A DNA stretch of 64,000 bases from sequence record NC_106514.1. One strand, written 5' to 3'. The position numbers and the translations under genes are program-made. Under the pieces are notes generated by a model, which was given only the letters and a program-made list of their open reading frames with translations, did not search any database and was not told the DNA's origin. Positions 1,497 to 64,000 of this stretch are shown in pieces. Within the stretch, counting starts at the first letter, position 1; each line of letters opens with the position of its first letter. The stretch is from Escherichia phage vB_EcoS_ESCO40.

Positions 1497-1498
1497 AT

Positions 1499-1927: not shown

Positions 1928-1936
1928 GGGGACACA

Positions 1937-2329
1937 ATGGAACAAGTATATTGGCGTCAGATTGATCCTAGTTTGGTGAAGCGTGCGGAGAAGCTGCTAC
2001 AACGTTGGTTGGGGGTAAGACAAGCCTCCTTCACTTTTCCAGAGCAGCAAATAGATGATCCCTGTGTTGGTGTTTTCCTATCAGGCTACGCTAGGGAATG
2101 GGAATTGGATTGGAATGAATTGTCTGCTATGGGTTTAATTGTTGCACTAAATTTCTCTTTGTTCCATCCACGTGGTTTGGCCATATGTCGTGTGCCTGGT
2201 GACGGTTGTTCGCCCCATCTTTTACAGGTGGAAGATGATATTTGGGAGTACACTCCAGGTATTCTCAAAGAAGCTAAAGAACAATTAAATCGTGTTGGAA
2301 TCTATGTTCCGGGACTAAATGATGAATAA
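1937..2329 (+). CDS. hypothetical protein, paralog of adjacent gene
   Basis: 130-aa ORF; tandem duplicate of the 1499-1927 product by shared motif pattern. Confidence 0.55.
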   Translation: MEQVYWRQIDPSLVKRAEKLLQRWLGVRQASFTFPEQQIDDPCVGVFLSGYAREWELDWNELSAMGLIVALNFSLFHPRGLAICRVPGDGCSPHLLQVEDDIWEYTPGILKEAKEQLNRVGIYVPGLNDE

Positions 2330-2513
2330 AGAATATTGGGTATGTTATGGTAAAATTAAAAAGTGGAATAAGGGTCAACTTTCCGCTAAACAAGTAAAAT
2401 TTATGGCGAGATATTTGACTGATCCCACTTTCGATATTAAAAAGTTAAGTAGCTCAAACCGCGCTATTATACTTAAATTTGCTAATACTATTCGTGGTCT
2501 TTTTTATGATTAA
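2319..2513 (+). CDS. hypothetical protein (64 aa)
   Basis: ORF overlapping upstream stop; followed by a hairpin. Confidence 0.4.
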   Translation: MMNKEYWVCYGKIKKWNKGQLSAKQVKFMARYLTDPTFDIKKLSSSNRAIILKFANTIRGLFYD

Positions 2514-2521
2514 TCCGTATA

Positions 2522-2548
2522 ACCGAGTCATTTTGGCTCGGTTTTCTC
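2522..2548 (+). terminator. putative intrinsic terminator
   Basis: Stem AACCGAG/CTCGGTT with 9-nt loop followed by TTCTCT. Confidence 0.4.
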
Positions 2549-2589
2549 TGTACTCAAAGACACTGATAGCACCATCCGGAAAATTTTAC

Positions 2590-2618
2590 TTGCATGATAC
2601 TCAAAATCTTGATATAAT
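2590..2618 (+). promoter_or_regulatory. T5-type early promoter (family member P1)
   Basis: TTGCAT-17 bp-TATAAT followed by conserved initial transcribed sequence ATTTATATTGAATTGAGAGA. Confidence 0.7.
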
Positions 2619-3118
2619 ATTTATATTGAATTGAGAGACATTAGTAAAAATTGGTTTTACTAATTTTTCTTGTTTACAATCCGCGATACGGAACAGTTAG
2701 GCTGCCCCATTAAGGGTTGTTTTAACTGTTACGTGTTAGTTTTTAAACAAATAGTTAATAGAATACTTAGCGATCTGCGTCCCATAGGAACCCTGGTAAG
2801 GCCTCGAAGCAACCTAGTATGAGGTGGTTGTGAAGTGAGATGGGAGGAGTGAAAAACTACCGAGACGTGATTCTGTAAGTTATATTGCATCTAGTATGAG
2901 CTAGTATATGAAGCATTAGGTGAGCAAATCTGGCTTAGCGGCCATCCTCAAGGATTTGTGCGGTATAATGAGGCAGCAGCGCAGCGTGAAAGTGGAAGTT
3001 GCCACCCCACTTCAGTATTTGCGATTAATTTGTTGAGAAATTGACAGTAACAGTTGTTCTATTCTTTCTGAATAGTCCTAAAGAAAACTTATTTCATTTC
3101 CAACACAGGAGTATTGTT

Positions 3119-5908
3119 GTGTTTTCAATCCTACAAGGTCATGCAGGATTTCATCGCGATTTAGCCACAGGCAATTGGCGAGAAGTTAAAGCAGAAGATT
3201 ATCTTTTTGCTAAAAGATTTTCCTCAAAGCATCCTGAAGGTAAACCAGCTTCAATGCCCTTCAAGTTTGATGTAATTGACGAAGTTGATCCTCAAACCCT
3301 AGTAGAAATGCTCCCTCTTATGAGACGTTTAACGTCTGACCCTCATATCGTTGCGGTACGAGGTCGATGTCTTGCACCTAAAAATAATGTGCGGCGTAAG
3401 AAGGGCAACTTTAATGTATCTAATCCAAGTCATATAATCGCAATGGATGTGGATGGTATTGTAGATACAGGAGGTTGTAACAAGTTTGATCTTGTTGGCG
3501 TGGCTCGACATATTATTAGGATGTTAAATAGTATTAGTGAGGATATGTTTCCTCTTGATGCAGGGTTTATCGCTCATGCATCGTCTTCGGCTGGACTAAA
3601 ACCAGGTATCCGAATGCACTTAATACTAGAATCTAATGTTAAAGTTACACAGGGTCAGATCAAGTTCTTATTTACATCTATCAACGAAAGTAGTAGACAA
3701 AAGTATGGCTTTGATATTGCCGACTTAGCTTATTACTCTTCCGTACAGCTCCACTATTTCGCAGATCCTTTATTTATTGATGGTATAGTCGATCCGTTTA
3801 AAGCGGAGGGTGCTTCACGTCTGGTATTTGTTAAAGGCTCAAAAGTAAATTTACCTAATAATCTAGTTGACTATGAAACAACTAGAGGAGAGTTTAAAGA
3901 GGAATTCTACTCTTTACTCGATCAAATTAAAGGTAAAAAAGCTGCCTCTGATAAAGTAGAGGAAACTATCAGTGAGCTAGAAGAGGCTGATGATGGGGTA
4001 TACTTACGTATTATTCCAAAGCTATATCACCGAGCGTTAGAGGATGGGGTAGATTTTGGTTGGCTAGAAAAAGAAATCCGCCCAGCTTTATCAGAATATA
4101 TTGCAACTAAAGATAATAGCCGTAATATTCAGGATTATTTCAATAACGGACGGAAACAGGCATTAAAAGCCTTTGTGAATAACTCTAAGCGTGAGATCCC
4201 TGAAGTATTAAAAGGTATCCCCCTTAAAAAGCTAGAAACTAATTCACTAGAGACTGACAACTTCTTGAAATTAAATACTGTACCACCAGAAGGCTATATG
4301 ACTTTTGTAAAAGCAAGTCTAGGCACAGGTAAAACCACGGCGGTTGTGCGTTGGTTAGATTCAGGGGTTATTAAAGGTAATTTCTTAGCAATTACCAATA
4401 CTAGAGCACTGGTATCTTCAAATGCTAAGAAATTTAGTGCAGGACAATATGATAAGTCTGTAGATATGCTTAATTTTAAGCGTGGTGCTATTGACCGTAT
4501 GTCCACAACTATTCACTCTTTGCATAAATTCAAGAGTTTTATTGGTCAAATTGACGCAATCTTTATCGATGAATGTGATGCAGTAATGAATGACCTATTA
4601 TTCGCTCCGGTTGTTAAGCAACGTCGCGAGTGTATTCAGGTTCTTCGTGATATTCTTGCAACTGCAAAAATAATTATATTATCTGATGGGGATATTAGTG
4701 CAGAAACAATTGAAGCATATGGTTCTTTGATTGAGTTCGATAAACCAGTTGCATTTTACAATCACCACCGTAAAATGCTGTCAAAAGCTCATGCTTATGA
4801 GTTCCCTGATGAATCCAGTATTTGGGTTGCACTTCAGACTTCTCTAGAGATGGGTGAGAAATCTATTCTAGTATCTGATTGTGGCCCGGATGAGCTGAAT
4901 GAGAAAGGTATGGCACTGCGTCGTAATACGGGTGCGTTAGTTAAGGAAATCCATTCAAACTCTACCTCAGATGTGGATATTCGACGTATTCTGGATTACA
5001 CAACTAATGAACTAATTGATCAACAAATTGATTGCTTATTATGTAGTCCATCCGTAACGAGTGGTGTTGACTTTAACTATTTTGATAACGTATTTGTTAT
5101 TACTAGAACTAGTAATCAAGCGCCAAACATGCGTTTTCAAGCAATCAGGCGCGACCGTGGTGCTCAGAATATCTATTATTTTATTGATAAATCCACTAGT
5201 GGGTTCTCTGCTGGTTCTGAACAATATAATATTGATGAAGGTTGGCTGGAGTTAGCACAGCAGTTATATGCGCGTCGCAGGGAGCTAGAATCTAGGAACT
5301 ATACTAGTACTTTACGTTATTACTTGCTTGATCAAGGTGCAACTATTGATATTTTCAGCGAAAGCTGGGGAACTATTGAAGGTGCTGGTAAAGAGTACAC
5401 AGAAGAGCGAATCAAAGCTATTCTGCATTCAACTCCAGATTATTGTGCTCCACGTCATGCGGATGCGTATGAAGCTAAACTACTTCTTGTTCGCTATTAT
5501 CATCTTGAGTCTATTAAAGATGTAACAGTTGAGCATGTTGAACAATATATCAAAGATAAGCCGAATGATCGAGCTGCATTCTTCCATAAGATGCACGAGA
5601 TGTTCTGGGAAGATATTAAGAAGTGTTCAAATGTGACCATTAAACCATTCATAGAAGCTCTGAAAGGTAAGAAGAAGGACTTCTTCCTTAAAACAGGTCA
5701 GAGTGCTAACCCAAAATATGCTAGAATGTATCTTGGTATGATGGGTATTGGTAAAGATATGAACACGGAGAATATCGTAGACTGGTACAGAACCTATTGT
5801 AAAATCGAGTGTATGCCAATTCCTTATAAGTTCATGACTGACGAGGAAAAACATATGCACGATGAAGCAATGTCAGAGCTAGGTGCTAGAAATGACAGTG
5901 AAGAATAA
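3119..5908 (+). CDS. SF2 helicase-domain protein, putative replication initiator / origin-binding-like
   Basis: Walker A GTGKTT and DExD-like IFIDECD in central region; ORF open from 3041 (TTG); GTG at 3119 follows AGGAG by 7 nt; start uncertain. Confidence 0.6.
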   Translation: MFSILQGHAGFHRDLATGNWREVKAEDYLFAKRFSSKHPEGKPASMPFKFDVIDEVDPQTLVEMLPLMRRLTSDPHIVAVRGRCLAPKNNVRRKKGNFNVSNPSHIIAMDVDGIVDTGGCNKFDLVGVARHIIRMLNSISEDMFPLDAGFIAHASSSAGLKPGIRMHLILESNVKVTQGQIKFLFTSINESSRQKYGFDIADLAYYSSVQLHYFADPLFIDGIVDPFKAEGASRLVFVKGSKVNLPNNLVDYETTRGEFKEEFYSLLDQIKGKKAASDKVEETISELEEADDGVYLRIIPKLYHRALEDGVDFGWLEKEIRPALSEYIATKDNSRNIQDYFNNGRKQALKAFVNNSKREIPEVLKGIPLKKLETNSLETDNFLKLNTVPPEGYMTFVKASLGTGKTTAVVRWLDSGVIKGNFLAITNTRALVSSNAKKFSAGQYDKSVDMLNFKRGAIDRMSTTIHSLHKFKSFIGQIDAIFIDECDAVMNDLLFAPVVKQRRECIQVLRDILATAKIIILSDGDISAETIEAYGSLIEFDKPVAFYNHHRKMLSKAHAYEFPDESSIWVALQTSLEMGEKSILVSDCGPDELNEKGMALRRNTGALVKEIHSNSTSDVDIRRILDYTTNELIDQQIDCLLCSPSVTSGVDFNYFDNVFVITRTSNQAPNMRFQAIRRDRGAQNIYYFIDKSTSGFSAGSEQYNIDEGWLELAQQLYARRRELESRNYTSTLRYYLLDQGATIDIFSESWGTIEGAGKEYTEERIKAILHSTPDYCAPRHADAYEAKLLLVRYYHLESIKDVTVEHVEQYIKDKPNDRAAFFHKMHEMFWEDIKKCSNVTIKPFIEALKGKKKDFFLKTGQSANPKYARMYLGMMGIGKDMNTENIVDWYRTYCKIECMPIPYKFMTDEEKHMHDEAMSELGARNDSEE

Positions 5909-8635: not shown

Positions 8636-9599
8636 TGTAAAAGGCTTTATTAGGCGTTGTCAAGAAGCATATTATCAAGGCATGTCTTTAATCTCTGATG
8701 AGGAGTATGATTGCCTGGTAAAACGCTTCCCGTTAGAAGAAGAGATCGGGCCTAAAGGTGATATTCCACATCTGTATCGTATGTATTCTTTACAGAAAGT
8801 TTATTATAATCGTGGAGATAAACCCCCATTTAACCCCTTAGGTCAGGTAGAAACTGATAAGTTAGATGGTTGTGCAATTTCTCTGTTATATATTAACGGC
8901 GAATTTGTCCAAGCATTAACCCGTGGTAATGGTATTCTAGGGAATGATGTCACAAGCAACGTAAGATTGCTGAACATTCCTAAAAAGATTTCCCAAAAAG
9001 TACCTACTCAAATCACTGGTGAAGTTCTAATTACAAAAGAAGTAGAAAATAAACGTAACTTTGCCTCTGGTGCTATTAACCTCAAAGATAGTGATGATTT
9101 CGTACAACGCATTGGAGAAGGCGGTTTAATCTTTGTTGCTTACGGTATCCAATGTTCTGCTGAATCTGTAGGTATTACAGAAGCATACTTAAAAGATATG
9201 CTTTGGCTAGAGAATGAGAACTTCTTAACAGTTGTTAATGTGCGTTCCTTCTTTAAATGGATTCCGACGGACGGTAAAGTTGTTCGTATTAATGACAACA
9301 ACAAATTCTTCCGTGAAGGCTGGACTAATAAATTCCCTCGTGGAGCATTCGCTATTAAAGAGGATGAAGAAGGCGAAATTACAACTCTTACTAAAGTTGA
9401 ATGGCAGGTAGGGGCTTCTGGTAAAGTAACTCCAGTTGGTTATTTCGAACCGGTAATTATTGATGATGCTACAATTGTTAAGGCGACTCTTAATAACGTT
9501 GATTATATTAACTCTCTCGATCTAGAGATCGGTTGCCAGATTCGAGTGATTCGTGCTGGTGGTGTAATCCCGTGCATAGTAGAGCGAGTATACGATTAA
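8625..9599 (+). CDS. NAD-dependent DNA ligase, N-terminal fragment (Ia-like, adenylation and OB regions)
   Basis: KLDG adenylation motif (KxDG); SDEEYD Ia-like segment; ends where a Zn-finger would follow in an intact LigA. Confidence 0.8.
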   Translation: MMNNVKGFIRRCQEAYYQGMSLISDEEYDCLVKRFPLEEEIGPKGDIPHLYRMYSLQKVYYNRGDKPPFNPLGQVETDKLDGCAISLLYINGEFVQALTRGNGILGNDVTSNVRLLNIPKKISQKVPTQITGEVLITKEVENKRNFASGAINLKDSDDFVQRIGEGGLIFVAYGIQCSAESVGITEAYLKDMLWLENENFLTVVNVRSFFKWIPTDGKVVRINDNNKFFREGWTNKFPRGAFAIKEDEEGEITTLTKVEWQVGASGKVTPVGYFEPVIIDDATIVKATLNNVDYINSLDLEIGCQIRVIRAGGVIPCIVERVYD

Positions 9600-9649
9600 T
9601 ACATAACCCTTTGCTACCCATCTACCATATCGGAATTATAAAGTGGTTA

Positions 9650-9678
9650 TTGACATTTTCGCCGCTTAGGTATATACT
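9650..9678 (+). promoter_or_regulatory. sigma70 consensus-like promoter in the ligase gap
   Basis: TTGACA-17 bp-TATACT. Confidence 0.6.
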
Positions 9679-9742
9679 ATTATCATTCAGTTGAGGGATA
9701 GAAAGTTATGGCGAGGGTAAGCAAAGTTAGTTAAAATTGTAG

Positions 9743-9771
9743 TTGCTAAATGCTTAAATACTTGCTATAAT
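9743..9771 (+). promoter_or_regulatory. T5-type early promoter (P5)
   Basis: TTGCTA-17 bp-TATAAT then ATTTATATAAATTGATAAGGAAG. Confidence 0.75.
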
Positions 9772-9801
9772 ATTTATATAAATTGATAAGGAAGAAATTT
9801 G

Positions 9802-10581
9802 ATGAAAATCGAAATTCCAACACAATGTCCCTCTTGTGGTTCTAAGCTAGATCTTGTCAACGGACAATTATTCTGTCGTAATAAGTCCAACTGTCCAGCG
9901 CAATCAAGTAAGTTAATTGAGAACTTCTGTACAAAAATGAAGTTAAAGGGCTTTGGCCCGAAAACTATTGAGAAGCTGGAGCTGACGAAGATTTCAGAAC
10001 TATTTTACCTAACCGAAGAAGATTTGGTTAGAGCCGTGGGTAGCAAGGTTGCCGCTAAGTTAATTAGCGAATTAAATACTAAAGTTCGCGGAGACATTGA
10101 CTTTGGTTCAGTTCTCGGTTCTTTAGGAATCCCTCTAATTGGAGAGGTTGCAGCAAAGAAATTGTCCCAAAATTGCACCAGTTTTCAAGATGTGAGAGCT
10201 GATGGCAAAGCTGGAGAAAATTATAAAGCCTGGCTAAATTCCCCACAAGGCAAGGATGTTATCGAATTACCGTGGAAATTCACAACTGGTATTAAAGGTG
10301 CTAAAGCTGGGGTCATCATTACTGATGGTCTAGTAGCCCAGCCAAATGGAATCACGGTGTGTATTACCGGGTCTTTGCAAGATTTTGCAAATAGAACGGA
10401 TGCAACAAATTATTTAGAAGGTCTAGGGTATACTGTTAAAAAATCAGTTACCAAAGACGTTAAATACCTAATCTGTGAGGATGAATCGAAGCGTTCTTCC
10501 TCATCTTATAAGAAAGCCGAAACGAATGGGATAGAAATCCTGTCGATTAAAGAACTATTGGAGAAAAATAATAATGTCTAA
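9802..10581 (+). CDS. NAD-dependent DNA ligase, C-terminal fragment (Zn finger, HhH, BRCT-like)
   Basis: CPSCGS...CRNKSNC zinc finger at N-terminus; ITGSL BRCT-like segment; TAAGGAAG RBS 8 nt upstream. Confidence 0.75.
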   Translation: MKIEIPTQCPSCGSKLDLVNGQLFCRNKSNCPAQSSKLIENFCTKMKLKGFGPKTIEKLELTKISELFYLTEEDLVRAVGSKVAAKLISELNTKVRGDIDFGSVLGSLGIPLIGEVAAKKLSQNCTSFQDVRADGKAGENYKAWLNSPQGKDVIELPWKFTTGIKGAKAGVIITDGLVAQPNGITVCITGSLQDFANRTDATNYLEGLGYTVKKSVTKDVKYLICEDESKRSSSSYKKAETNGIEILSIKELLEKNNNV

Positions 10582-54434: not shown

Positions 54435-54554
54435 TTAGCACTAAAATGACTTTTGCCAAATTTCATAAGATTACACATGGAGGTGTGCTCACTGCCTCCG
54501 GCGAAAATACTTAGTCTCCTAACCGCCACCCCCGTTACTATTACTCTGCTAACT

Positions 54555-54591
54555 GTTTCACCCTGCAACCATTTTAATTGCAAGGTGAAAC
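54555..54591. terminator. long hairpin between convergent genes
   Basis: 14-bp stem GTTTCACCCTGCAA/TTGCAAGGTGAAAC (one mismatch) with 9-nt loop; no clear U-tract. Confidence 0.35.
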
Positions 54592-54608
54592 AATTTCAAC
54601 TTTAATTG

Positions 54609-55343
54609 TTAGGCAACTTTTAATTTCTCGATGTACTGTTGCGGGCTGCAACTATATTCTGCGCGTTCTTCCTCGGTCATACTTTCCCAGCATAATTTTA
54701 AACGGTCGGCTAGAAATTGATAATCATTATCATCCTCAAGAGATTCATCAATAAAGGTTTCACCTATCAATGTGACACCGATTGATAGAATATCGTTAAT
54801 AGCTTGCGCGTCCAGCGTTTTAAATCCGTATGATGCCGCCGCTGATAGCACGCCTTTATGATCATCAATCATAGTAAAATCAGCGTTCGGATAAAGCTGT
54901 TTAAATAACTCAAAGTAATGGCTTTTATATATAGCGTCTTTACTGTGGTATATTTCGCTAACTTTATCAGCTTCAAAATATTTGTGCAGTGTATCGCGGG
55001 AAAATACGCGGATATTACTATCCCCACGCCCTCGCAGTCCTTGCTTGCGTAGGTAATAATAATCGGACTTGCTCATCAGTCGAGCGGTGCAGATAATGTT
55101 TAACGTGTTAACGTCATTCATACATTGGCGCATATATGTAACAAGCGGCAAGAGTGTATCTTGCATTATTAAATCGTGTTTACATGCTTCATTCTTGTAC
55201 TTATTTAGATCTAGATTGCCGTCGCTATCAAAGCAAGGCGCTACGCGATGGAATGAATTAACGATAGTGCCATCTAGATCCCAAATCATGACGCGGGAAA
55301 TATGCGGGAAATTACGGGTAATATTCGTTTTAACTTGATTCAT
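54609..55343 (-). CDS. dmp: HAD-family deoxyribonucleoside 5'-monophosphatase-like protein
   Basis: 244 aa; MIWDLDGTI HAD motif I; position next to A2-like and A1-like genes. Confidence 0.6.
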   Translation of the reverse strand: MNQVKTNITRNFPHISRVMIWDLDGTIVNSFHRVAPCFDSDGNLDLNKYKNEACKHDLIMQDTLLPLVTYMRQCMNDVNTLNIICTARLMSKSDYYYLRKQGLRGRGDSNIRVFSRDTLHKYFEADKVSEIYHSKDAIYKSHYFELFKQLYPNADFTMIDDHKGVLSAAASYGFKTLDAQAINDILSIGVTLIGETFIDESLEDDNDYQFLADRLKLCWESMTEEERAEYSCSPQQYIEKLKVA

Positions 55344-55417
55344 TTTGTTACGTTCTCCTTTTAAGGGATTAAATTAAATTAATCCAGCCCACTGGATGGG
55401 CTGGACTATTCCAGCTA

Positions 55418-55813
55418 TCAAAGACCATAAGCCAACGCATCGGCGATGACGGTAATATCCTCGCCCGATACATCGGAACGAATGCCCGCGCATGTAAATA
55501 CCTTCGCACTCATTAGCTGATCATCCAGACAAGCGGGGCAAGGCGCGACAACTGCGAAAGCTAAACCTGATTTTACGGCGTCGATGATAGTCGTTTCCTG
55601 CTTCACTGTGTCAATATAAACGCCTTTCGCCTTGATGCGGCTGGATAGTTTGCCCGTGGTATAGGCGAAAGTCGTGATCTGTAGCGCCTCGTTAAACTCG
55701 ATTAAATCATCGACAACGTGACCGGCCTCAACGTGATACCGCTCACCATTTGAATAAACTAGGACGATGGAAGAACGAGCGCGATCGAATGGAATACGGT
55801 TAGAAATAGCCAT
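55418..55813 (-). CDS. pre-early protein, A2-like
   Basis: 131 aa; assignment by size and position between dmp-like and A1-like genes. Confidence 0.4.
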   Translation of the reverse strand: MAISNRIPFDRARSSIVLVYSNGERYHVEAGHVVDDLIEFNEALQITTFAYTTGKLSSRIKAKGVYIDTVKQETTIIDAVKSGLAFAVVAPCPACLDDQLMSAKVFTCAGIRSDVSGEDITVIADALAYGL

Positions 55814-55885
55814 GTTTATAGCTCCAATTAATTTAATAAACTTTTATAGCGGCTATATTTCAAGCCGCCAACCTGATTTATTGGC

Positions 55886-57559
55886 TTACTGTACAAAAAA
55901 TTTGCCGTTCTTAAAGTCGATCAAAGTGCGCTGGCCGTTCGCATAGGTAATAACATGCGTTTGCGTCCAGCTCGACGCGCCAACGTTATAGCCCATGTCC
56001 AGACTACCAGATACGCCAGCGGTATAAACGCCGCCGTAAATGCTGGCGGTGTGAGTGTGCCCCGTGTTTAATTTGCCCAATTTCTTAAATTGCTTCGGAT
56101 TGCCACGGCTCCCGTTAATGCCATTGTGACCGTGTACACCGCACTCAATGCCTGCAATCTTGAAAGATTGATCAGTGGTCAGGAAAATAGCGTTAAATTC
56201 ACAACCTGCAACCTTGCGCAGCGCATAATCCAGCACGTTGAAAGTATCGTCTTTTTCTGCAATAGCTCCGTAAATCGCAGCATTAAGGCGGTGATATAGT
56301 TCCGCGTTGGCTGGATCGTCTTTAATGTTAGCATTACGATCATCAAGCCAACGGGATAACGCCAGATCATGGTTAGATTCAACAATGATCGTTTGAGCAA
56401 AATCGCGCTCCATTGATTCCAGTACGCGCCCGGTATCGATAAGGTCATCCAGAACTTTATCACGTCCGGCGGCGTATTGTTTTGCTAGGAATACACCAGA
56501 AGCGCGGTTGTGATGATTGCGCGATGTAAAATCATGCACGTCATGCACGAATTGATATTTTGGTTTAAGAATATCAACAAGCCCGTAGGTATCACCATGC
56601 CCCCACGACGCAGCGGCGCACTCCTCATCCAATTTTTCGGCGTGTATGTCGCCATATTGCAAGCCTAAAACATGATCGGACGTTTCAAAGCATCCGGCGG
56701 GAGTGGCGCAAATATTCAAATCGTAAAACATGCCGCTTTCGTCCATCGTTTCAAGCTGGCGAACAAAAAATTCACCGTCCTCGTCAAACTCAACAATCAG
56801 CGCACCAAAATTATGTAGCGCCTCGGCCTTTTGCCCTGCCTTTTGCTGAATGTAGTTTTTGAGCGTTGCCGTTCCGGTCGAGTACATACGGCGCACTACT
56901 TCACCTTTTAAAGCTGGGACGCTTTCGGCGGTGATTTTAGCCGCTCCAATTGCCAGACCTTCCAGATTAAGCGCGGTTGCAGTTTCAGCGAATCCAGAAA
57001 GCGGATAATCTGCAGTTGGTAACACGTTAATCTCAGCCATGAAAGCAAAACGGCGATTATTCAAAAACACGTTTTTATTGCAGATATATTTATCAAACGC
57101 AGAATCATATTTGATTCCGTCCGCGCCCTCACCATTTTGAAAACCGTTTTTATTATAAATATACTTGCTAACCAGCAAATCAGCGCCAATAAATTGGGCA
57201 TATTGTTCAAGCGAGGATAAAAAGTTTTTATGCGGGAAAGTATTATTCTGAATCGATGTAATAATAAAGCGTTTACCTTGTTTTACTTCCCAGCTTTCCA
57301 CCGTGCTAGAAATAACTCCAGCGGCTTCAGGGCGGTCATCGTTTTTAATAGCTTTTACAGTTTTTGCCGCTTTTGGTTTCGCTGGTTTATTTGCTTCCAG
57401 CCAATCACAAATAGCGGTGGAATGCTTTGGAGTATCGTAAACCATTTTAGAAATATCGTCACATACTTCCAATTTAGTGGCGCGCAGACGTTTACCATAG
57501 AAATTAAAGTCAGCGGCCATTTTCAGGATAACGGTTTGTTTTTCTGCGGAAATAATCAT
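55886..57559 (-). CDS. A1: pre-early protein A1-like (metallophosphoesterase-type)
   Basis: 557 aa; calcineurin-like motifs GDIHAE, GHGD, NHD, GHTH in the C-terminal half; position and size match T5 A1. Confidence 0.6.
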   Translation of the reverse strand: MIISAEKQTVILKMAADFNFYGKRLRATKLEVCDDISKMVYDTPKHSTAICDWLEANKPAKPKAAKTVKAIKNDDRPEAAGVISSTVESWEVKQGKRFIITSIQNNTFPHKNFLSSLEQYAQFIGADLLVSKYIYNKNGFQNGEGADGIKYDSAFDKYICNKNVFLNNRRFAFMAEINVLPTADYPLSGFAETATALNLEGLAIGAAKITAESVPALKGEVVRRMYSTGTATLKNYIQQKAGQKAEALHNFGALIVEFDEDGEFFVRQLETMDESGMFYDLNICATPAGCFETSDHVLGLQYGDIHAEKLDEECAAASWGHGDTYGLVDILKPKYQFVHDVHDFTSRNHHNRASGVFLAKQYAAGRDKVLDDLIDTGRVLESMERDFAQTIIVESNHDLALSRWLDDRNANIKDDPANAELYHRLNAAIYGAIAEKDDTFNVLDYALRKVAGCEFNAIFLTTDQSFKIAGIECGVHGHNGINGSRGNPKQFKKLGKLNTGHTHTASIYGGVYTAGVSGSLDMGYNVGASSWTQTHVITYANGQRTLIDFKNGKFFVQ

Positions 57560-57655
57560 AGTAATAAAACTCCATTAAAGGGATTAAAAACGTTTGTTAT
57601 TGGCAATATTGCCAGATATAACGCCGCAAATGAGTGGCGTTATAATTTGCAACAT

Positions 57656-57853
57656 TTAACTAATAGGCATTAGGCTGGCACTAACCCCACAAGCAACGGC
57701 GGCGATTAAGCAAAGTAAACCCAACCGCCTTGCTAAATTAGCCTTGCGTTTAAAATAATATGAATCCAGATCATTTTGAAAATAAGCAAACAATAATGAG
57801 GCGGCCATAATAAATAAGCCTAGAATGAGGGATTCAGTAGGGTAAAAGATCAT
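57656..57853 (-). CDS. small membrane protein (65 aa)
   Basis: Two hydrophobic segments (LILGLFIMAASLLFAYF and LGLLCLIAAVACGVSASLM). Confidence 0.5.
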   Translation of the reverse strand: MIFYPTESLILGLFIMAASLLFAYFQNDLDSYYFKRKANLARRLGLLCLIAAVACGVSASLMPIS

Positions 57854-57909
57854 TTTAAAACTCCAGTCAAAGGGAAATTATAGTGGGGAATAATCCCCAC
57901 TAATTAAAT

Positions 57910-58326
57910 TTATTCGCCAGCGGCTTGTTTTACTTCATCGGCAACGCCTAACAGTTGCGCCACGGCGTCCAGCGTTTCCAATTTTGCACTTTCCAGCGAG
58001 GCCAGATCATCGGCGTCTTTGATAATACCGGAATCGATCGCATGTTTTGCAATAACGCGCACATAATGCGCTTTACGAATGGAACTACCGCCGCCAACCT
58101 TGCGAGGTTTATCGCTTTTCTGATACGCTTTCGCGCTGGTCAATTTTGAGCGAACAGACACGGGAGAAGTCGCGCCAACTGTTTTAGCAATCTCTTTCAG
58201 GCCGTCGCTGTTGGCGAACTCTAATCCATTTTCATTGATTAGCTGTTGATACATAGTAACAGCCTGTTGGGTGTTTTCTTCATTCCATGCGAATTTTGCA
58301 GATTTTTCGGTTTTAACGTTAGCCAT
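57910..58326 (-). CDS. hypothetical protein (138 aa)
   Basis: ORF in the leftward pre-early operon; no motif recognised. Confidence 0.5.
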   Translation of the reverse strand: MANVKTEKSAKFAWNEENTQQAVTMYQQLINENGLEFANSDGLKEIAKTVGATSPVSVRSKLTSAKAYQKSDKPRKVGGGSSIRKAHYVRVIAKHAIDSGIIKDADDLASLESAKLETLDAVAQLLGVADEVKQAAGE

Positions 58327-58422
58327 GATTATAACTCCTATTGAATTAATTTAAGGGATAAGATTAACATAATGTTAATCGTTATATCCCCCGAACTACT
58401 GGGGGATATAAAAGTAACACTA

Positions 58423-58674
58423 TTACGCTACAGCTTCAAATTTTTCGTTCCGCTGGACAACCTTTACAACGTCGCCGGATTTAACCCGAACGTTATAAAT
58501 AGTTTTCCCGTTGTTACTCCGTTCCGTTTCAGCATATACCGCATCAATCACATCGAACGGCATAAGCGCCGCGCCTTTGATGCGTTCGGCCTTTCCAGTT
58601 GCCTCATCCGTTTTAGTAACGAAAGGAATAAAAACGGATTGACCAATTTTAGGCGCGGTAATAACGTTTTTCAT
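58423..58674 (-). CDS. hypothetical protein (83 aa)
   Basis: ORF in the leftward pre-early operon. Confidence 0.45.
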   Translation of the reverse strand: MKNVITAPKIGQSVFIPFVTKTDEATGKAERIKGAALMPFDVIDAVYAETERSNNGKTIYNVRVKSGDVVKVVQRNEKFEAVA

Positions 58675-58901
58675 AGTATAAACTCCTAGTTATTTGGGGA
58701 TTGTTCCGCATTACCTGCTAGAAAGTAGCAGGTAATAAGAAAAAATCCGCTCGCCAATATAATCAATTTAAAGAACTCCACTCAGGCCGCTATATCCCAG
58801 TTAGGGGGCGGGACACATTATGGTAAGTGCCGACCGTCAAATTGTATCAAGTTATCGCTCTTATCGAACTGGGTACATCTTAAAGCCTATCGGCTAGGGT
58901 G

Positions 58902-59105
58902 TCAAACAATTTTTTGCAGTTTTTTATGATTTTCTTTCAGGTCAATCATAATATTTCGCCAGATCATTTCCAGACCTTGCTGGCGGCCTTTCTTGTACTG
59001 CGTGAATCTATATCTTACGGATTGTTGAGCTATTGTCAACAATTTTTTAGTATTGCCATCCAATTTTTTGGCTGGTTTACCAGTTATCAAAAGCGTTTGT
59101 TTCAT
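58902..59105 (-). CDS. hypothetical basic protein (67 aa)
   Basis: Lys/Arg-rich ORF; AAGGA RBS 9 nt upstream on the minus strand. Confidence 0.45.
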   Translation of the reverse strand: MKQTLLITGKPAKKLDGNTKKLLTIAQQSVRYRFTQYKKGRQQGLEMIWRNIMIDLKENHKKLQKIV

Positions 59106-59725
59106 ATCTGCGATTCCTTATATAATTGATAAGTTTACCGCCGATAGACTTTAAGATATACCCAATTTTTAAAGAGCGCGGCGGTAAACTTCCCGCCGTT
59201 GTAGTCCGTTGCCGTCCTACGAGATAAATAATAGCAAATACCAAAAATGGCGCAACCTTATTTTTGTAAAGAAACGTAAAGAAAGCAACACGTCCGGCGT
59301 TCACCTAAGTTTAAAGGAAACGGGCGCGCGAATACCACAAAACACAGCAGATAGGCAAGTAATTTTTTCATTTATATTTGCCTTGCCCTACTTGACAAAA
59401 CTTAAAAAGCTCAAGGCGACGATAAACGGCTTATCCCTTTATGATGGCATACCTGAAAATTTTACCGCTTTCTAGGACGTTTTAGGCGGCTTATTTTCGA
59501 CTTAACAAATATTTAACAAAAGCAAAATTGAAAAATAGTTTGAAAAGATATTGACTTTTTAAAATCAAGATTAAACGAGTTATTTTATAAAATTAATTAA
59601 TTGACTTTTATTTGACGTTGTGTATTAGAAAGATAGCAGACTAATAATTGCTAGGATGATAATCATGCTGGTGGATTGTAACAGCCTGAACTATTAGCAG
59701 ACTATTAATCACGGAAAATCTCATT

Positions 59726-59754
59726 AGCCAACTAACTATTTCCTGAGTTATAAT
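59726..59754 (+). promoter_or_regulatory. promoter-like element with T5-type downstream leader (P10)
   Basis: TATAAT followed by ATAAGCATAAATTAATGAGAT matching the conserved leader of the early promoters; weak -35 (AGCCAA). Confidence 0.45.
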
Positions 59755-59805
59755 ATAAGCATAAATTAATGAGATAATAATAATTATAAGAAATCGTAAC
59801 CAATA

Positions 59806-59897
59806 GAAATAATAACTATAAAAATAATAACTATAAAAATAATAACTATAAAAATAATAACTATAAAAATAATAACTATAAAAATAATAACTATAAG
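59806..59897. repeat. 15-bp tandem repeat, about 6 copies
   Basis: AATAACTATAAAAAT repeated head to tail. Confidence 0.9.
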
Positions 59898-59934
59898 AAA
59901 CTATCGGCCTAAGTGAGAACCACTATCATTTAAG

Positions 59935-59943
59935 TTATCCACA
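59935..59943 (+). promoter_or_regulatory. DnaA box (perfect 9-mer)
   Basis: TTATCCACA. Confidence 0.5.
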
Positions 59944-59994
59944 AGTTTATTAACAGCACTTTTTGACTTGACACGATAGGCGGCGATATAAGGG

Positions 59995-60044
59995 CTTATC
60001 CACAGACTTATCCACAGGTTATCCTACTGTATAAATATACAGGG
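59995..60044 (+). promoter_or_regulatory. composite element A: two tandem DnaA boxes plus a LexA-box-like palindrome
   Basis: TTATCCACA at 59996-60004 and 60008-60016, then TACTGTATAAATATACAGGG (CTGT-N8-ACAG) at 60025-60044. Confidence 0.55.
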
Positions 60045-60308
60045 TAGAAAGGTAGTGTTAACAACTGCAATCAATTTTAAGCGGCCTAAATCGCTTTCTA
60101 ACGAGCTAAATGCAGTGGGGTAATATTAAAGTAAAGCCTTCACCCGCCGCCCTGGTGGCTTCGCCGTGTTTTGCTCTTTACTATACCGCTGCGCGGTTAG
60201 CATAAAACTAGGCGTTAGGCAAGGAAAATAAAAAGGTAAAATAATATTTGCCCCTAGAAAGAAAATACCCTTATCATTCACTCACCGATTAACGAGGGAG
60301 TCCAACAA

Positions 60309-61286
60309 ATGAGGCTGTATAAACCAGATAATGCCACCGTCTTAAAAGGTGCGCTGCGCAACCTGCTGGACGGTAGCAGAACAACCAGCATTAAGCACTT
60401 TGTTAACAAGGCCGAAGATATTCACCAAAATTTTTTTGATGATTTCGATGCCTATGATATGAGTAGTTTTTTGCAATTGTATAAGCAAGGGGCAACGCTT
60501 GTTTTGTATAATCGAGATAATCACCTGCTTACTAGTAGGGGGCCGGATACTGATTTTATAATTGTAAAAGGTAGCACAGTAAAAGCCTATGACACTGGGG
60601 CGGGCTTAGAAGTTTTTTCAATAGAAAACTATGAAGCCAACCCCAATGATCTTTATGACGTTGAAAACTTTCTTGATTCATTTTGGCGTTATTTATCAGT
60701 TGGCTGGAATCGGTCAATTGGTGACGGTTATCGTCTGGCGGCTGTAATGGCTTTTGATGATGATGGCAATTTTTTGCTACCGTCGGAAATATACCCTTAC
60801 GTATATGATGGGGATATAGAAAGCGCGGGCTTTTCTTTCTGGAAGGAGGAAGATCAGCCTATTGACAATATAGAAAAACATGCGGTAAATTCTAACGCTC
60901 AAACCATTGAAAACAAAGGAAAAAATACCATGACCAAGATCGCTAATATCGTTGCCGCTAATAAGTCTGCCGTTGTAAATGCTGCAAAATTGGAAGCGGG
61001 TAAAATTGCACTGACTCAAATCACGAAAGTAGCGGCTAAAAAAGCGCCGTTTATGATTAAAGGCTATATTGATACGCCTATCGGTCGGGTAGTGATTGCT
61101 AACCTGCTTAGCGTGGTGGTTGACCAGTATGCCCCTAGCAACCAGAAAGCGAAAGCGGTAGCGGGTGCAGCTATGGAAGCGGCTATGTTAGAAATGGTGC
61201 AAAGTTTTAACATTGCTGAAATGATTGACGAAATGGTGAAAGGTATTGATATTTCTACTTTTACCGTTAACACCGAAAACGAGTAA
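60309..61286 (+). CDS. hypothetical protein (325 aa)
   Basis: GAGGGAG RBS 9 nt upstream; no motif recognised; first gene of the rightward cassette. Confidence 0.6.
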   Translation: MRLYKPDNATVLKGALRNLLDGSRTTSIKHFVNKAEDIHQNFFDDFDAYDMSSFLQLYKQGATLVLYNRDNHLLTSRGPDTDFIIVKGSTVKAYDTGAGLEVFSIENYEANPNDLYDVENFLDSFWRYLSVGWNRSIGDGYRLAAVMAFDDDGNFLLPSEIYPYVYDGDIESAGFSFWKEEDQPIDNIEKHAVNSNAQTIENKGKNTMTKIANIVAANKSAVVNAAKLEAGKIALTQITKVAAKKAPFMIKGYIDTPIGRVVIANLLSVVVDQYAPSNQKAKAVAGAAMEAAMLEMVQSFNIAEMIDEMVKGIDISTFTVNTENE

Positions 61287-61313
61287 TAGTTAACCTAGTG
61301 TAAAGTTTTGTAA

Positions 61314-61340
61314 AGGTCGCCATAATCGGCGGCCTTTTTT
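61314..61340 (+). terminator. intrinsic terminator
   Basis: GGTCGCC/GGCGGCC hairpin (one G-U pair) followed by TTTTTT. Confidence 0.6.
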
Positions 61341-61348
61341 GTTATAAT
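61340..61348 (+). promoter_or_regulatory. extended -10 promoter element
   Basis: TGTTATAAT (TGn-TATAAT) directly after the terminator T-tract. Confidence 0.4.
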
Positions 61349-61405
61349 GCCTTTACACCAAAACGGTGGATTGAAAATTTTCCCAAAAAATTTTGGAGGC
61401 TTAAA

Positions 61406-61636
61406 ATGGTTGCTTACTCTTCTTCTGACGCTCTTTTCACTGGAAAAGGCTGGGTATCAAATCGCTGGATCATTCAAGAAATGGTGCAAGAATATGGCAT
61501 TGCTAAAACTTACACTACCATTCAGGCGCTTTATGATAATGATCAAATCGATCAGCAAACGGCGGGCTTTTTGCTGGATACCCTAAAAGCGGAACATTGT
61601 ACTAAAAAACAAGCCGCAAAAATTATTTTAATGTAA
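61406..61636 (+). CDS. hypothetical protein (76 aa)
   Basis: GGAGG RBS 7 nt before ATG. Confidence 0.55.
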   Translation: MVAYSSSDALFTGKGWVSNRWIIQEMVQEYGIAKTYTTIQALYDNDQIDQQTAGFLLDTLKAEHCTKKQAAKIILM

Positions 61637-61682
61637 TTAATAACGGGGCGTTATTTTCGCCCCGCTAACTAGGAGAATGAAA

Positions 61683-61832
61683 ATGGTTATTTTTCGAGCT
61701 ATTCTGGCGGGTATCTTGGGCGCTATTTTATCACTTTTTGCCATAGCTTTCGGCGTTCACGCGGTTATTGTTGGCGCGGGTATCGCTGTATTTTCTTATC
61801 TGCTGGGCTGCATGACTAGTAAAGGAGAATAA
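61683..61832 (+). CDS. small membrane protein (49 aa)
   Basis: AGGAG 7 nt upstream; almost entirely hydrophobic (two predicted helices); not in the ORF track because it is under 60 aa. Confidence 0.45.
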   Translation: MVIFRAILAGILGAILSLFAIAFGVHAVIVGAGIAVFSYLLGCMTSKGE

Positions 61833-61834
61833 AA

Positions 61835-62047
61835 ATGATTCGTAACGTTTCCCTTGCTCGTTCAAAGGGTTTTAGGCTGGTGGACGTTAACACGTTCGAG
61901 CGGGAAGACTGTAAAATCGAATATGTAGCACGGAATAAAAACGCCTTCCGTGTTACAGAAAAGAAATTCGATAAGCGCGGCAACGTGATCGCTGAAACGG
62001 TTAAATATTTTGCCACCTTTTACGCTGCGTTTCGTGGGGTACTATGA
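61835..62047 (+). CDS. hypothetical protein (70 aa)
   Basis: AAGGAGAA RBS; Lys/Arg-rich. Confidence 0.55.
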   Translation: MIRNVSLARSKGFRLVDVNTFEREDCKIEYVARNKNAFRVTEKKFDKRGNVIAETVKYFATFYAAFRGVL

Positions 62048-62178
62048 AAAACGTTATTATTATTATTATCCTTGCAATGGTTGGCGGTTTTACCGCCACC
62101 TTGTTTAAGAATGACCCCCTTTTACTGGGGGTTTTTATGCTTTTATCAGGCTATCTGATCGGGAGGATATGCAAATGA
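62044..62178 (+). CDS. small membrane protein (44 aa)
   Basis: Start overlaps upstream stop (ATGA); hydrophobic VIIIIILAMVGGFTATLF and LLLGVFMLLSGYLIG; under 60 aa. Confidence 0.4.
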   Translation: MKNVIIIIILAMVGGFTATLFKNDPLLLGVFMLLSGYLIGRICK

Positions 62179-62519
62179 TCATTTACGAGGGCAATCGTTT
62201 TGTTACTAATTGCCGCCCAGCATTATTAGCAAACTATTTAAACCAGCTTTCGCCAGCTTATAAGGGCGTTATTAATATTTATGAAGGCAAGGCGCACTAT
62301 AAAATCAATGCGGTCGTTGCCCGTGAACTAGCGTTTCAATTTTTGACCTTTGCATCTTGCGACGTTCAGGTTATGGGTGAGGCATTAATCGCAGAAAATG
62401 AAGATGATTTTATTAATATTTTCCGTAAGGTGTGCACCGAGCGCCTGATAATGAAAGGCGCATATATTCAATCCACGGCTGATAGTATTGAAACAGCGTT
62501 TCGAAAGGTGGCGCAATGA
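62169..62519 (+). CDS. hypothetical protein (116 aa)
   Basis: GGGAGG RBS upstream; no motif recognised. Confidence 0.55.
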   Translation: MQMIIYEGNRFVTNCRPALLANYLNQLSPAYKGVINIYEGKAHYKINAVVARELAFQFLTFASCDVQVMGEALIAENEDDFINIFRKVCTERLIMKGAYIQSTADSIETAFRKVAQ

Positions 62520-62611
62520 GATTATATATTTTCGCGGGCAATGTTGAGGCTGCAAATGATTCCGCTGGTGGCGATAACGTTCGCCACTACTGGCAAAAAT
62601 ATATTTACTAG
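62516..62611 (+). CDS. hypothetical small protein (31 aa)
   Basis: Start overlaps upstream stop (ATGA), fills an otherwise empty 100-bp gap. Confidence 0.3.
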   Translation: MRLYIFAGNVEAANDSAGGDNVRHYWQKYIY

Positions 62612-62619
62612 GGGTTACT

Positions 62620-62814
62620 ATGAGCAATAAAATTATTGTGACCAAAACCACCACAACGGTTGACGTTTTTTATGTGCCCGATACGCCGGAAAACCGGCAA
62701 GCGGTCGAACGTGGTGAATATGATAGCGTAATTTATGACGCTGATGGTTATTATCAGCATTTGGTCGATTCCTATGGGGAAGAGGAGAAGATCACGCATC
62801 AATTACCAGACTGA
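62620..62814 (+). CDS. small acidic protein (64 aa)
   Basis: About 14 Asp/Glu against about 5 Lys/Arg; last gene before a terminator. Confidence 0.55.
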   Translation: MSNKIIVTKTTTTVDVFYVPDTPENRQAVERGEYDSVIYDADGYYQHLVDSYGEEEKITHQLPD

Positions 62815-62820
62815 CAACAA

Positions 62821-62844
62821 ACGGGGAGCAGATCCCCGTTTTTC
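62821..62844 (+). terminator. intrinsic terminator
   Basis: ACGGGGA-GCAGA-TCCCCGT hairpin followed by TTTTCAC. Confidence 0.7.
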
Positions 62845-62954
62845 ACACCTGCAACCAGATAACCCCTTGTTTTAGTATCCCCGCCAAAATTAAACGCGTT
62901 AGAATGCGATCTAGGACGTTTTAAGCCTATATTAGAATTATTCACTGCATAGGA

Positions 62955-63064
62955 ATACTGTATAAATATACAGTAGAATAACCTGGGGATAAGTCTGTGG
63001 ATAACGCTTCAAAATGGCTAGGATTCTGTCAAGGCAAATCGTGCTGTTGATAAGTCTGTGGATA
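62955..63064 (-). promoter_or_regulatory. composite element B: LexA-box-like palindrome plus two DnaA boxes, inverted relative to element A
   Basis: TACTGTATAAATATACAGTA at 62955-62974 (one mismatch to the SOS-box consensus as recalled); TGTGGATAA at 62995-63003 and 63056-63064. Confidence 0.55.
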
Positions 63065-63093
63065 ACCTAAATAACAGTGTTTCTCACTTCCAT

Positions 63094-63290
63094 TCTTAAA
63101 TGAGAATCATTATCATTCGCATTCCACTATCTAACCGATAATCATTTCCTTTCTTAAATGAGAATCATTTCACTTTTTGAATAGTTCTCATTCTCTTTCT
63201 TAAATGAGAATCAATCTCATTTCATTTTCTAAATGCGAATTATTATCATTCTCATTCCGCTTTTTAAATGATAATGATTCTCATTATCAT
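63094..63290. repeat. array of about 5 AT-rich direct repeats (TCTTAAATGAGAATCAT-type)
   Basis: Copies at about 63094, 63153, 63198, 63227 and 63262; the last contains GATAATGATTCTCATTATC, 17 of 19 matches to the Fur-box consensus as recalled. Confidence 0.7.
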
Positions 63291-63328
63291 TCGCATTCAG
63301 GCGAGCAGGGCAATTGCCCTGCGCTTTT

Positions 63329-63929
63329 GTGCAAATCCGACAATTGCTCCAAGGGTTACGTGCTGGCGTGTATGTGCAAATCCGACAATTTTTGGTAGTG
63401 TGCAAATCCGACCCGAAAAATTTTTATAGTGTGCGAATCCGACAATGAATTTTCCTAAAAACTCCAGCAATCACGAACTGCGTTCGAATCCTGTGGGATA
63501 TGTGCAAATCCGACACGGTTTTTCTAGGATTAAGATGTGCGAATCCGATGAAGTTTTTGTGAGTTCGATTGGAAGGTGTGTGATTGTATGGGTTTGTGGA
63601 GAAGGTGAGAGAGCGAGAGAAATTTGGTGGGCTAGAAGGATGTGGTCGCAGGATTGGTGTGGAGCACCTGGTTTGCGGGGATTTTGGGGAAGAGTTGAGA
63701 TAATTTGGGGAAATTTGAGATAGGTGCAGAAAAAGTAAAATTTTATTAGCAAAATGGGGCAAAATAGCTTGACAAGTGAAAATTCTTGTGGCTCTAAAAA
63801 CTCAGGCAATCATGGGCCTTCGGCCCGAAATAATGCTGCTATTTTCAGGAGAGTAAGAGTTCCTAAAAACTTAGGCGTTTGTGCAAATCCGACCATAAAT
63901 TTCTAGAAACACAATGTGCGAATCCGACA
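63329..63929 (+). repeat. eight dispersed direct copies of a 14-bp motif GTGC(A/G)AATCCGA(C/T)
   Basis: Copies at 63329, 63374, 63400, 63431, 63502, 63537, 63881 and 63916, all in the same orientation, each followed within 12 nt by a T-run. Confidence 0.85.
63575..63730 (+). other. G+T-rich strand-asymmetric tract
   Basis: About 150 nt almost devoid of C on the plus strand (GGTGTGTGATTGTATGGGTTTGTGGAGAAGGTGAGAGAGCGAGAG...). Confidence 0.7.
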
Positions 63930-63970
63930 GTAATTTCTGGAAATGTGTTTTCAAAAAATGTCTTCTAGAA

Positions 63971-64000
63971 ATAACCGCCCTCCCTATAACCGCCCTCCCT
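63971..64000 (+). repeat. 15-bp direct repeat, 2 copies, at window edge
   Basis: ATAACCGCCCTCCCT twice in tandem. Confidence 0.8.

Follow-up and report, generated by a model that had tools for sequence, protein, structure and literature searches.

Why should some 150 nucleotides near the end of a phage genome be almost free of cytosine on one strand? The question is raised by Escherichia phage vB_EcoS_ESCO40, of whose sequence record NC_106514.1 a stretch of 64,000 nt, called the window here, was analysed as a whole; positions are counted from its first letter. The element concerned, called the tract, is a G+T-rich, C-poor segment of 156 nt on the plus strand (63575-63730), characterized by its base counts, by comparison with relatives and by the predicted fold of its RNA. 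Judged from its sequence, the window derives from a T5-like phage (Tequintavirus), and the tract is almost certainly the G-rich segment of the conserved non-coding region of 1.2-1.8 kb at the right end of the T5-like terminal repeat ('Repeat Region 3'). We suggest two most likely roles for the tract: it may load Rho onto a non-coding transcript that runs leftward, or it may belong to the DNA-packaging signal.

With the 1.2 kb around the tract as query, 446 phage records and no plasmid were matched, BF23 being the closest (92.7 %) and T5 having 88.7 %; a plasmid origin, for which iterons and DnaA boxes resembling oriV were considered, was therefore rejected. Alignment to T5 (AY587007 and AY543070), BF23 and Spc35 places one collapsed copy of the terminal repeat, of 9,309 bp, at 54486-63794 on the plus strand. 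The tract lies between D repeat 6 and the end of this repeat, 65-220 nt inside the right end. It aligns to about 9920-10075 of T5 (AY587007), and its T5 homologue falls inside a feature that AY543070 labels 'injection stop signal (iss)' (9140-10149).

Strand composition and phasing of the tract

The plus strand of the tract contains 67 G, 43 T, 37 A and 9 C, which amounts to a GC skew of +0.76; the minus strand is 43 % C and 6 % G (67 C and 9 G over 156 nt). As background, all 156-nt segments of the 64 kb were used, which hold on average 30.3 C (standard deviation 6.5) and 31.1 G (standard deviation 6.2). The skew of the entire 64 kb peaks at 0.79 at position 63571, the value of the tract is attained by 0.02 % of the segments, and no other cluster reaches an absolute skew of 0.6. 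Only 8 C occur in the low-C zone, which spans about 63567 to about 63726. The first-pass annotation of this DNA had described a nearly C-free, G+T-rich run of about 150 nt set in a repeat region. Both parts of the description are confirmed: the counts agree and the strings it quoted are present, and the tract is preceded on the left by six copies of TGTGCRAATCCGAY and followed on the right by two, all on the plus strand. The same annotation had named a skew within the genomic background, along with a lack of nicks or structures, as the outcome that would speak against it. Since the base-skew plot puts the tract far outside that background, the annotation is not contradicted on this point.

The tract has an internal order as well. 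It contains an imperfect 19-nt direct repeat (63684-63702 and 63704-63722) with a spacing of 20 nt, or two helical turns, and a repeat search of the tract found no inverted repeats inside it. Clusters of G and clusters of A/T alternate with a period of 10.0 nt, which is the strongest period in the window segment and in T5, Klebsiella phage IME260 and Proteus phage Stubb; in these four, the A/T power at 10.0 nt was matched by 0-2.6 % of shuffles. The segment 63621-63840 is one of the five most strongly periodic in the 64 kb, and from 63682 to the repeat end the A/T tracts are spaced at multiples of about 10 nt. A stronger A/T periodicity of about 10 bp than in the tract region was seen in segments of 160-220 nt starting at 53731, 57511 and 51671. 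The one starting at 57511 belongs to the divergent region of pre-early promoters and repeats inside the terminal repeat.

The evolution of the tract was followed in 24 distinct sequences of Tequintavirus and Epseptimavirus. The tract has 60-68 G and 8-14 C throughout, though its identity to the window drops to 61 %. Per column there are about 0.94 variant alleles in the tract and about 0.5 in the flanks. Within the tract, G is gained at 0.44 per non-G column and C at 0.15, whereas the two rates are similar in the flanks. This ratio of about 3:1, against about 1:1 in the flanks, suggests that the composition is being maintained. Column conservation in the region is lowest in the middle of the tract (0.67 at 63630-63649). 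Conservation is 0.91-0.97 at 63670-63709 and 0.95-0.99, the maximum of the alignment, at 63730-63850, where the repeat end and a hairpin are found. The best-conserved core of the tract (63677-63722, plus strand), delimited by conservation, repeat and period, comprises GGGGATTTTGGGG and both copies of the direct repeat, which is known as 'direct repeat A'; here the G clusters alternate with A/T clusters every 10 nt or so. GGGGATTTTGGGG begins 118 nt before the repeat end in 18 of the 19 relatives that have it. The terminal block that follows, up to the repeat end (63725-63794, plus strand), was defined by column conservation and the boundary, and it is the only part that blastn still picks up in Sugarlandvirus.

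In more distant genera the tract lies beyond blastn alignment, with the skewed composition still at the same place. The G-rich zone has 66 G and 9 C (skew 0.76) in IME260, a Sugarlandvirus, and 53 G and 5 C (skew 0.83) in Pantoea phage AAS21. In Stubb, a Novosibvirus, a skew of about 0.6 extends across about 380 nt, and Vibrio phage Quinn has a short version (skew 0.38) that retains ...GATTTTGGGGGATTTGGG... Each genus has 6-16 runs of at least three G and 0-2 runs of at least three C, so that the runs are exclusive to one strand. Taken together, these comparisons indicate that the tract is constrained in strand composition and in 10-nt phasing across at least five genera, and that the target of selection is strand-specific composition, next to a small core where the sequence itself is kept. 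An extra D repeat (GTGCRAATCCGAT) was seen within the G-rich tract of Epseptimavirus (locus L007, about 1245-1258) and of Sugarlandvirus (locus L006, 1424-1438).

Several other explanations of the conserved segment were rejected. Protein coding is contradicted by open reading frames of 92 and 39 codons that are broken differently in T5, by indels of 1-2 nt in the tract and by the lack of any annotated gene there in T5, BF23 and Spc35. A search for known RNA families in Rfam gave a single chance-level hit outside the tract (PrrF, 21 bits against a gathering score of 90). A scarcity of indels was considered as evidence for spacing and given up, since 8 small gap runs in tract plus boundary, against 11 and 3 in the flanks, do not discriminate.

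A leftward promoter and a C-rich RNA

What could maintain an asymmetric composition while the sequence drifts? One possible answer comes from transcription. In T5, a near-consensus promoter with an extended -10 element (TTGACA-17-TATCAT, with TG before it) points leftward 660 nt to the right of the repeat end (locus L001, 3115-3087, minus strand). It is located just past the first early gene and is unannotated in the T5 records. Of 22 distinct relatives, 16 have a leftward sigma-70 promoter (TTGACA, a spacer of 17-18 nt and TGTTATAAT, often perfect, or a near variant); it lies 580-910 nt beyond the boundary on the right and comes with at least five different spacer sequences. The promoter is also present in IME260 (at 11/12; L006, 2486-2458), in Stubb (at 12/12; L010, 12984-12956), in Quinn (at 10/12), in AAS21, and in BF23 with a weaker -35 element. 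No conserved open reading frame was found downstream of this promoter in T5. A search for minus-strand intrinsic terminators gave none in T5 from the promoter to the pre-early genes (1400-3300 of its locus) and none in the window from 62700 to 64000. A promoter at a TTGACA box of this phage was also considered and rejected: its best -10 element, TCTAAA, lacks the key A2 and T6, the promoter scan made no call, and AAS21 has TTGATT.

The RNA made from this promoter would have an unusual composition over the tract. The C/G ratio of the leftward T5 transcript, taken in 80-nt segments, is at most 1.8 in the first 600 nt, is 4-13 exactly over the tract, and then is about 1. The minus-strand RNA of the tract folds at -9.2 kcal/mol over 156 nt, leaving about 140 nt unpaired, against -34.4 for the neighbouring 156 nt. 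Read on the minus strand, the conserved feature is a zone of about 150-250 nt with 40-45 % C, 3-10 % G and almost no secondary structure. Within it, C-rich pentamers alternate with A/U-rich pentamers every 10 nt (UCUCA-AAUUU-CCCCA-AAUUA-UCUCA...). Rho utilization (rut) sites are defined as C>G-biased and low in structure, optimally over 60-90 nt, and each Rho subunit binds 5 nt, with linkers of 4-5 nt between, giving a period of 9-10 nt (PMC12360218). The tract shows both the C>G bias over at least 60-90 nt and the scarcity of RNA structure, and the 9-10 nt period of Rho matches its own period of 10.0 nt, which we count in favor of the rut interpretation.

We therefore tentatively read the tract as a Rho loading (rut) zone. 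The promoter to the right of the repeat end would fire leftward through D9-D7, the hairpin and the repeat boundary into the tract. Rho would bind the bare C-rich RNA and free RNA polymerase in the zone of the D repeats and the nick. Such a release would keep leftward early transcription off the core of the stop signal and would prevent antisense transcription of the pre-early operon. As the tract lies inside the terminal repeat, its copy at the right genome end would, on this proposal, be carried along passively. A Rho loading zone would explain the strand asymmetry, the composition that is kept while the sequence drifts, the unstructured RNA, the period, and a promoter with nothing to express. 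The resemblance to well-known rut sites such as lambda tR1 extends to a C>G-biased, weakly structured RNA longer than 60-90 nt, and to C-rich pentamers at 10 nt, and would include a position on untranslated RNA after a strong promoter. In contrast to them, the tract is longer and far more extreme in its skew, a part of it is conserved in sequence, and it keeps a fixed distance from a DNA cut.

Several points weigh against a Rho loading zone. First, the leftward promoter of vB_EcoS_ESCO40 would lie beyond the end of the window, and we infer it from the relatives. Second, BF23 has an intrinsic terminator about 150 nt past the promoter, and in BF23-type phages, the closest relatives, such a terminator should stop most transcripts, although the tract is equally skewed there. 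The spacing from promoter to terminator is about 150-300 nt in BF23 and Quinn, and a terminator so shortly after the promoter suggests a small RNA in these phages. Third, sequence as well as composition is conserved in the right third of the tract, which is fixed 118 nt from the repeat end and runs into the phased A/T block; this fits a protein site at the DNA level better than a rut site. Fourth, a rut site need not be inside the terminal repeat. Finally, measurements of a T5-like transcript, of its 3' end or of its Rho dependence were not found in the searchable literature, nor was a T5 transcriptome or Rho study.

Packaging, injection and other readings

The features that fit a DNA-level site lead to the strongest competitor of the Rho loading zone. 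It is possible, if somewhat doubtful on present sequence comparisons, that the tract and the terminal conserved block together form a region recognized by terminase, like lambda cosB or herpesvirus pac1. An oligomer of the small terminase, for which the DNA just inside the right repeat boundary is the expected seat, would wrap G clusters that lie on the same strand one helical turn apart and would set the large subunit to cut at ...GTGGCTC|TAAAAA. What is expected of a terminase site, namely a fixed position by the cleavage site and repeated or phased elements, was found here. The tract is 65-220 nt from a boundary that is identical in both T5 records, BF23 and Spc35 (right junction after 63794), and eight loci stop within two bases of it, at positions equivalent to 63792-63795, at least some of them because the record ends there, as at the T5 right end. 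The GGGGATTTTGGGG core keeps its distance of 118 nt from the cut in all but one of the relatives that have it. The 10.0-bp alternation of G and A/T recurs in four genomes, the A/T tracts remain in phase from 63682 into the terminal block, and the two copies of the direct repeat (63684 and 63704) are two helical turns apart. G runs on one strand only would be expected of binding sites arranged head to tail. The tract also stays beside the boundary motif in AAS21 and IME260, and it is kept in BF23-type phages whatever befalls the leftward transcript. Packaging and injection usually follow a last-in, first-out rule. Since T5 DNA is injected left end first, the tract is on the side of the cut expected to enter the capsid first.

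Other observations are difficult to reconcile with a packaging signal. Sequence change in the left two-thirds of the tract is twice as rapid as in the flanks. The repeats annotated in Stubb and Quinn stop about 300-700 nt further left, at the homologue of the nick, which would put the G-rich zone outside the repeat. G-rich patches occur to the right of the boundary too in IME260 and AAS21, bending alone would not need strand asymmetry, and it is a different motif, TAACCGCC, that is common to both repeat boundaries. A T5 terminase-site or terminase-binding study was not found in the searchable literature. A Rho loading zone and a packaging signal are compatible and do not exclude each other.

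By analogy, the two could even be joined in one device, though we consider this unlikely: the tract may be an arm of a transcription-coupled module with which phages that have long terminal repeats produce their genome end. From the promoter, host RNA polymerase would travel leftward until it met a hairpin and a U run whose end coincides with the terminase cut (minus strand, ...GAGTTTTTA|GAGCC). Beyond the cut, the phased array of G clusters (GGGG-TTTT-GGGG) would seat the small terminase on the DNA, and the same array, as C-rich RNA, would recruit Rho to clear the polymerase. A parallel to this arrangement is phage T7, where a pause or termination signal at the concatemer junction is reportedly needed for DNA maturation. 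Here too a promoter points across the repeat junction, and on that strand the hairpin with its U run stops right at the cut position, ahead of a zone that would be prone to termination. However, T5 uses the host polymerase, the comparison is a pure analogy, and we know of no link between transcription and T5 packaging.

A role in injection is, in our opinion, quite unlikely. In such a case, the tract would be a spacer or binding platform for a nucleoprotein complex on the D repeats, which would hold the DNA at the first-step pause or mark the site where A1/A2 restart the transfer. The location of the tract inside the GenBank iss feature, the eight D repeats of one orientation that flank it and the D repeat embedded in it in Epseptimavirus and Sugarlandvirus would suit this role. 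In an analysis of 25 T5-like phages, Repeat Region 3 was found to be strongly conserved, and the stop signal was proposed to consist of DnaA-box inverted repeats and DRE repeats located to the left of an estimated shear point at T5 9618 (Davison 2020, bioRxiv 10.1101/866236). The tract begins about 300 bp and ends about 460 bp past that shear point, and would thus be in the tail or envelope channel during the pause. Because the stop signal and the shear point are both to the left of the tract, the tract would belong to the second-step DNA. Davison's model calls for a cleavage site or A1/A2 target that is within the repeat but beyond the stop signal on its right, in just the interval where the tract lies; it gives no role to the segment from D6 to the repeat end and makes no mention of a 'G-rich' or asymmetric stretch. 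On the other hand, FhuA alone gives complete ejection in vitro, which argues that the DNA itself is no block. Moreover, the model offers no reason for the strand asymmetry, and no evidence singles out the tract itself.

The first-pass annotation had proposed that the tract could form a G-rich secondary structure on the displaced strand, or be a nick or pause site in DNA transfer or packaging. Taken further, a G-quadruplex or another single-strand structure would pause the DNA, or would protect the 3'-ending strand like a telomere. The quadruplex or nick reading is very unlikely and the least supported of the functions proposed. Sugarlandvirus tracts, and they alone, hold 7-10 canonical G-quadruplex motifs (G4Hunter 2.24), and the highest plus-strand G4Hunter score of the window (1.52) falls inside the tract. 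Furthermore, the first 75 nt inside the left repeat end (54486-54560) are C-rich on the plus strand (27 C, 10 G), so that at both genome ends, with the G-rich strand of the tract having its 3' end at the right terminus, the 3'-ending strand is the G-rich one. Yet prediction gave no motif of four runs of at least three G, with loops of up to 12 nt, on the plus strand of the whole window, the tract included, or in the tracts of T5, BF23, Spc35, Epseptimavirus, AAS21 and Stubb. The G runs move or shorten among close relatives, and the single-stranded plus-strand DNA of the tract folds no better than shuffled sequences (z -1.2) and has no inverted repeats, so that a structure on the displaced strand is weakly supported. 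As to the nick, the major nick of T5 (at 7.9 %) maps to 63317-63324, which is outside the tract by about 250 nt on its left side; there is no GCGC in the tract, and the one in the T5 tract is replaced here by GTCGCA. A nick site within the tract is therefore not supported. The idea of a nick or pause thus holds for the neighbourhood, the iss region close to a right end made by terminase, but not for the tract itself, with the nick and, further left, the stop signal both outside it.

Finally, the weakly conserved left part (63630-63649) and the single weak internal repeat that is left would suit a non-coding spacer without function of its own, whose skew is a by-product of decayed G-rich repeat copies or of a local mutation bias, but this is extremely unlikely given that the extreme skew persists in five genera after divergence past blastn detection and that G gains prevail over C gains in the tract and not in the flanks.

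The terminal-repeat region and known systems

The elements around the tract follow the same order as in T5: the pre-early terminator, DnaA boxes in inverted repeats, palindromes, the 7.9 % nick, D1-D6, copies 2 and 3 of direct repeat A (aligned to 63681-63719), the repeat end and further D repeats (D7-D9 in T5). The intrinsic terminator of the rightward pre-early operon, 'palindrome C' of T5, was recognized from sequence and T5 annotation at 62821-62845 on the plus strand (ACGGGGAGCAGATCCCCGT followed by a T run). At 62984-63065, a motif scan found four 9-mers resembling DnaA boxes, in two pairs (TGGGGATAA, TGTGGATAA, TGTTGATAA, TGTGGATAA); this set is the core of the proposed injection stop signal, IRD'-spacer-IRC' (Davison 2020, bioRxiv 10.1101/866236). 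Palindrome J (GCAGGGCAATTGCCCTGC) with GCGC, the homologue of the major single-strand nick of T5, was placed at 63305-63324 by alignment with the T5 features 9661-9668 and 9748-9749. Repeat search and T5 annotation gave the direct repeats D1-D6 (TGTGCRAATCCGAY) in a single orientation at 63328-63549 (plus strand), and repeat search gave D7 and D8 at 63880-63928 and two copies of (A)TAACCGCCCTCCCT at 63972-64000, also on the plus strand.

The left repeat boundary reads ...GGAGGTG|TGCTCAC and the right one ...TTGTGGCTC|TAAAAAC. The left end at 54486 agrees with T5 and with BF23, whose repeat ends were determined with PhageTerm (PMC10644984). A motif shared by the left and right boundaries was looked for and rejected, there being a weak TGTG(G)CTC resemblance that is worse in T5. 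The 8-mer TAACCGCC with a C-rich tail was seen on the plus strand at 54520, 35 nt inside the left repeat end, and at 63972 and 63987, which is 178 and 193 nt to the right of the right end. TAACCGCC is thus on the same side of both terminase cut sites, and IME260, AAS21 and Stubb also carry it on the right side of the boundary; it is possible that it is a recognition motif shared by both repeat boundaries.

About 20 nt to the right of the repeat end there is a hairpin, GGGCC-TTCG-GCCC, recognized from its sequence (63814-63826; conservation 0.99). On the minus strand it is followed by TGAGTTTTTA, with the repeat boundary directly after its A, so that the T run of this strand ends exactly at the boundary. 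In Sugarlandvirus a hairpin is found at the same place with another sequence (L006 1586-1602, CACGGTG-ACA-CACCGTG); the structure is therefore kept while the sequence is not.

Annotated repeat ends differ between genera. In Stubb (determined with PhageTerm; L010 11415) and Quinn (L074 12735), the right repeat end is annotated exactly at CTGCGC|, just ahead of the first D repeat, which is the homologue of the 7.9 % nick of T5 and not the T5-type boundary. For Novosibvirus, there was no record with both repeat copies. In chee130_1 (L007 1225) the repeat is annotated to end where the G-rich tract starts. This means that the cut site has shifted between genera or that some of the repeat-end annotations are wrong.

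Within the window, late genes are followed by a single copy of the terminal repeat, after which only the first 206 nt of the early region are included. This layout shows that the source assembly was circularly permuted and that both terminal repeats were collapsed into one. Five Chi sites (GCTGGTGG) are present in the window, at 9555, 10880, 59667, 61876 and 62564, all on the plus strand and none on the minus strand, against an expectation of 0.4-1.5 per strand, depending on Markov order. Three of them belong to the terminal repeat; they are 1.2-4.1 kb away from the right genome end and oriented for RecBCD entry from that end. Two of the five are common to T5 and BF23. A Chi cluster as the content of the tract was rejected: the tract of the window has none, the G-rich zone of Stubb has two, and those of T5, BF23 and IME260 have none.

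How does the tract compare with what is known? By sequence it is a homologue of a long-known segment of the T5 terminal-repeat non-coding region, with the high identity to T5 and BF23 and the shared order of elements described above. Published descriptions of Repeat Region 3 (Heusterspreute et al. 1987; Wang et al. 2005; Davison 2020) give its repeats and palindromes, but neither the strand asymmetry nor a role for this segment, and the stop signal is 300-600 nt further left. In herpesvirus pac1, a T-rich element between G runs directs cleavage at a fixed distance (PMC13595911). The tract resembles pac1 and lambda cosB in its G4-T4-G4 core 118 nt from the genome end, in its phased and probably bent DNA, and in being on the side expected to be packaged first. 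In pac1, the distance to the cleavage site is about 30-35 nt, against 118 nt for the tract. There is no sequence homology, and the likeness to pac1 is a lead and not a test.

What is new here is the cross-genus constraint on strand composition and phasing, the conserved strong promoter aimed at the tract, and the two mechanisms proposed for it. How T5 injection stops and restarts, and how ends are marked and cut in phages with 10-kb terminal repeats, have been questions since the 1960s-80s, and the non-coding region that must carry the injection and end signals is highly conserved. If the tract is only a Rho terminator, it would be ordinary biology in a famous place. If, on the other hand, transcription and terminase are coupled at this genome end as outlined above, the tract would belong to the first cis-acting packaging signal defined for T5-type phages, a parallel to the concatemer-junction pause of T7.

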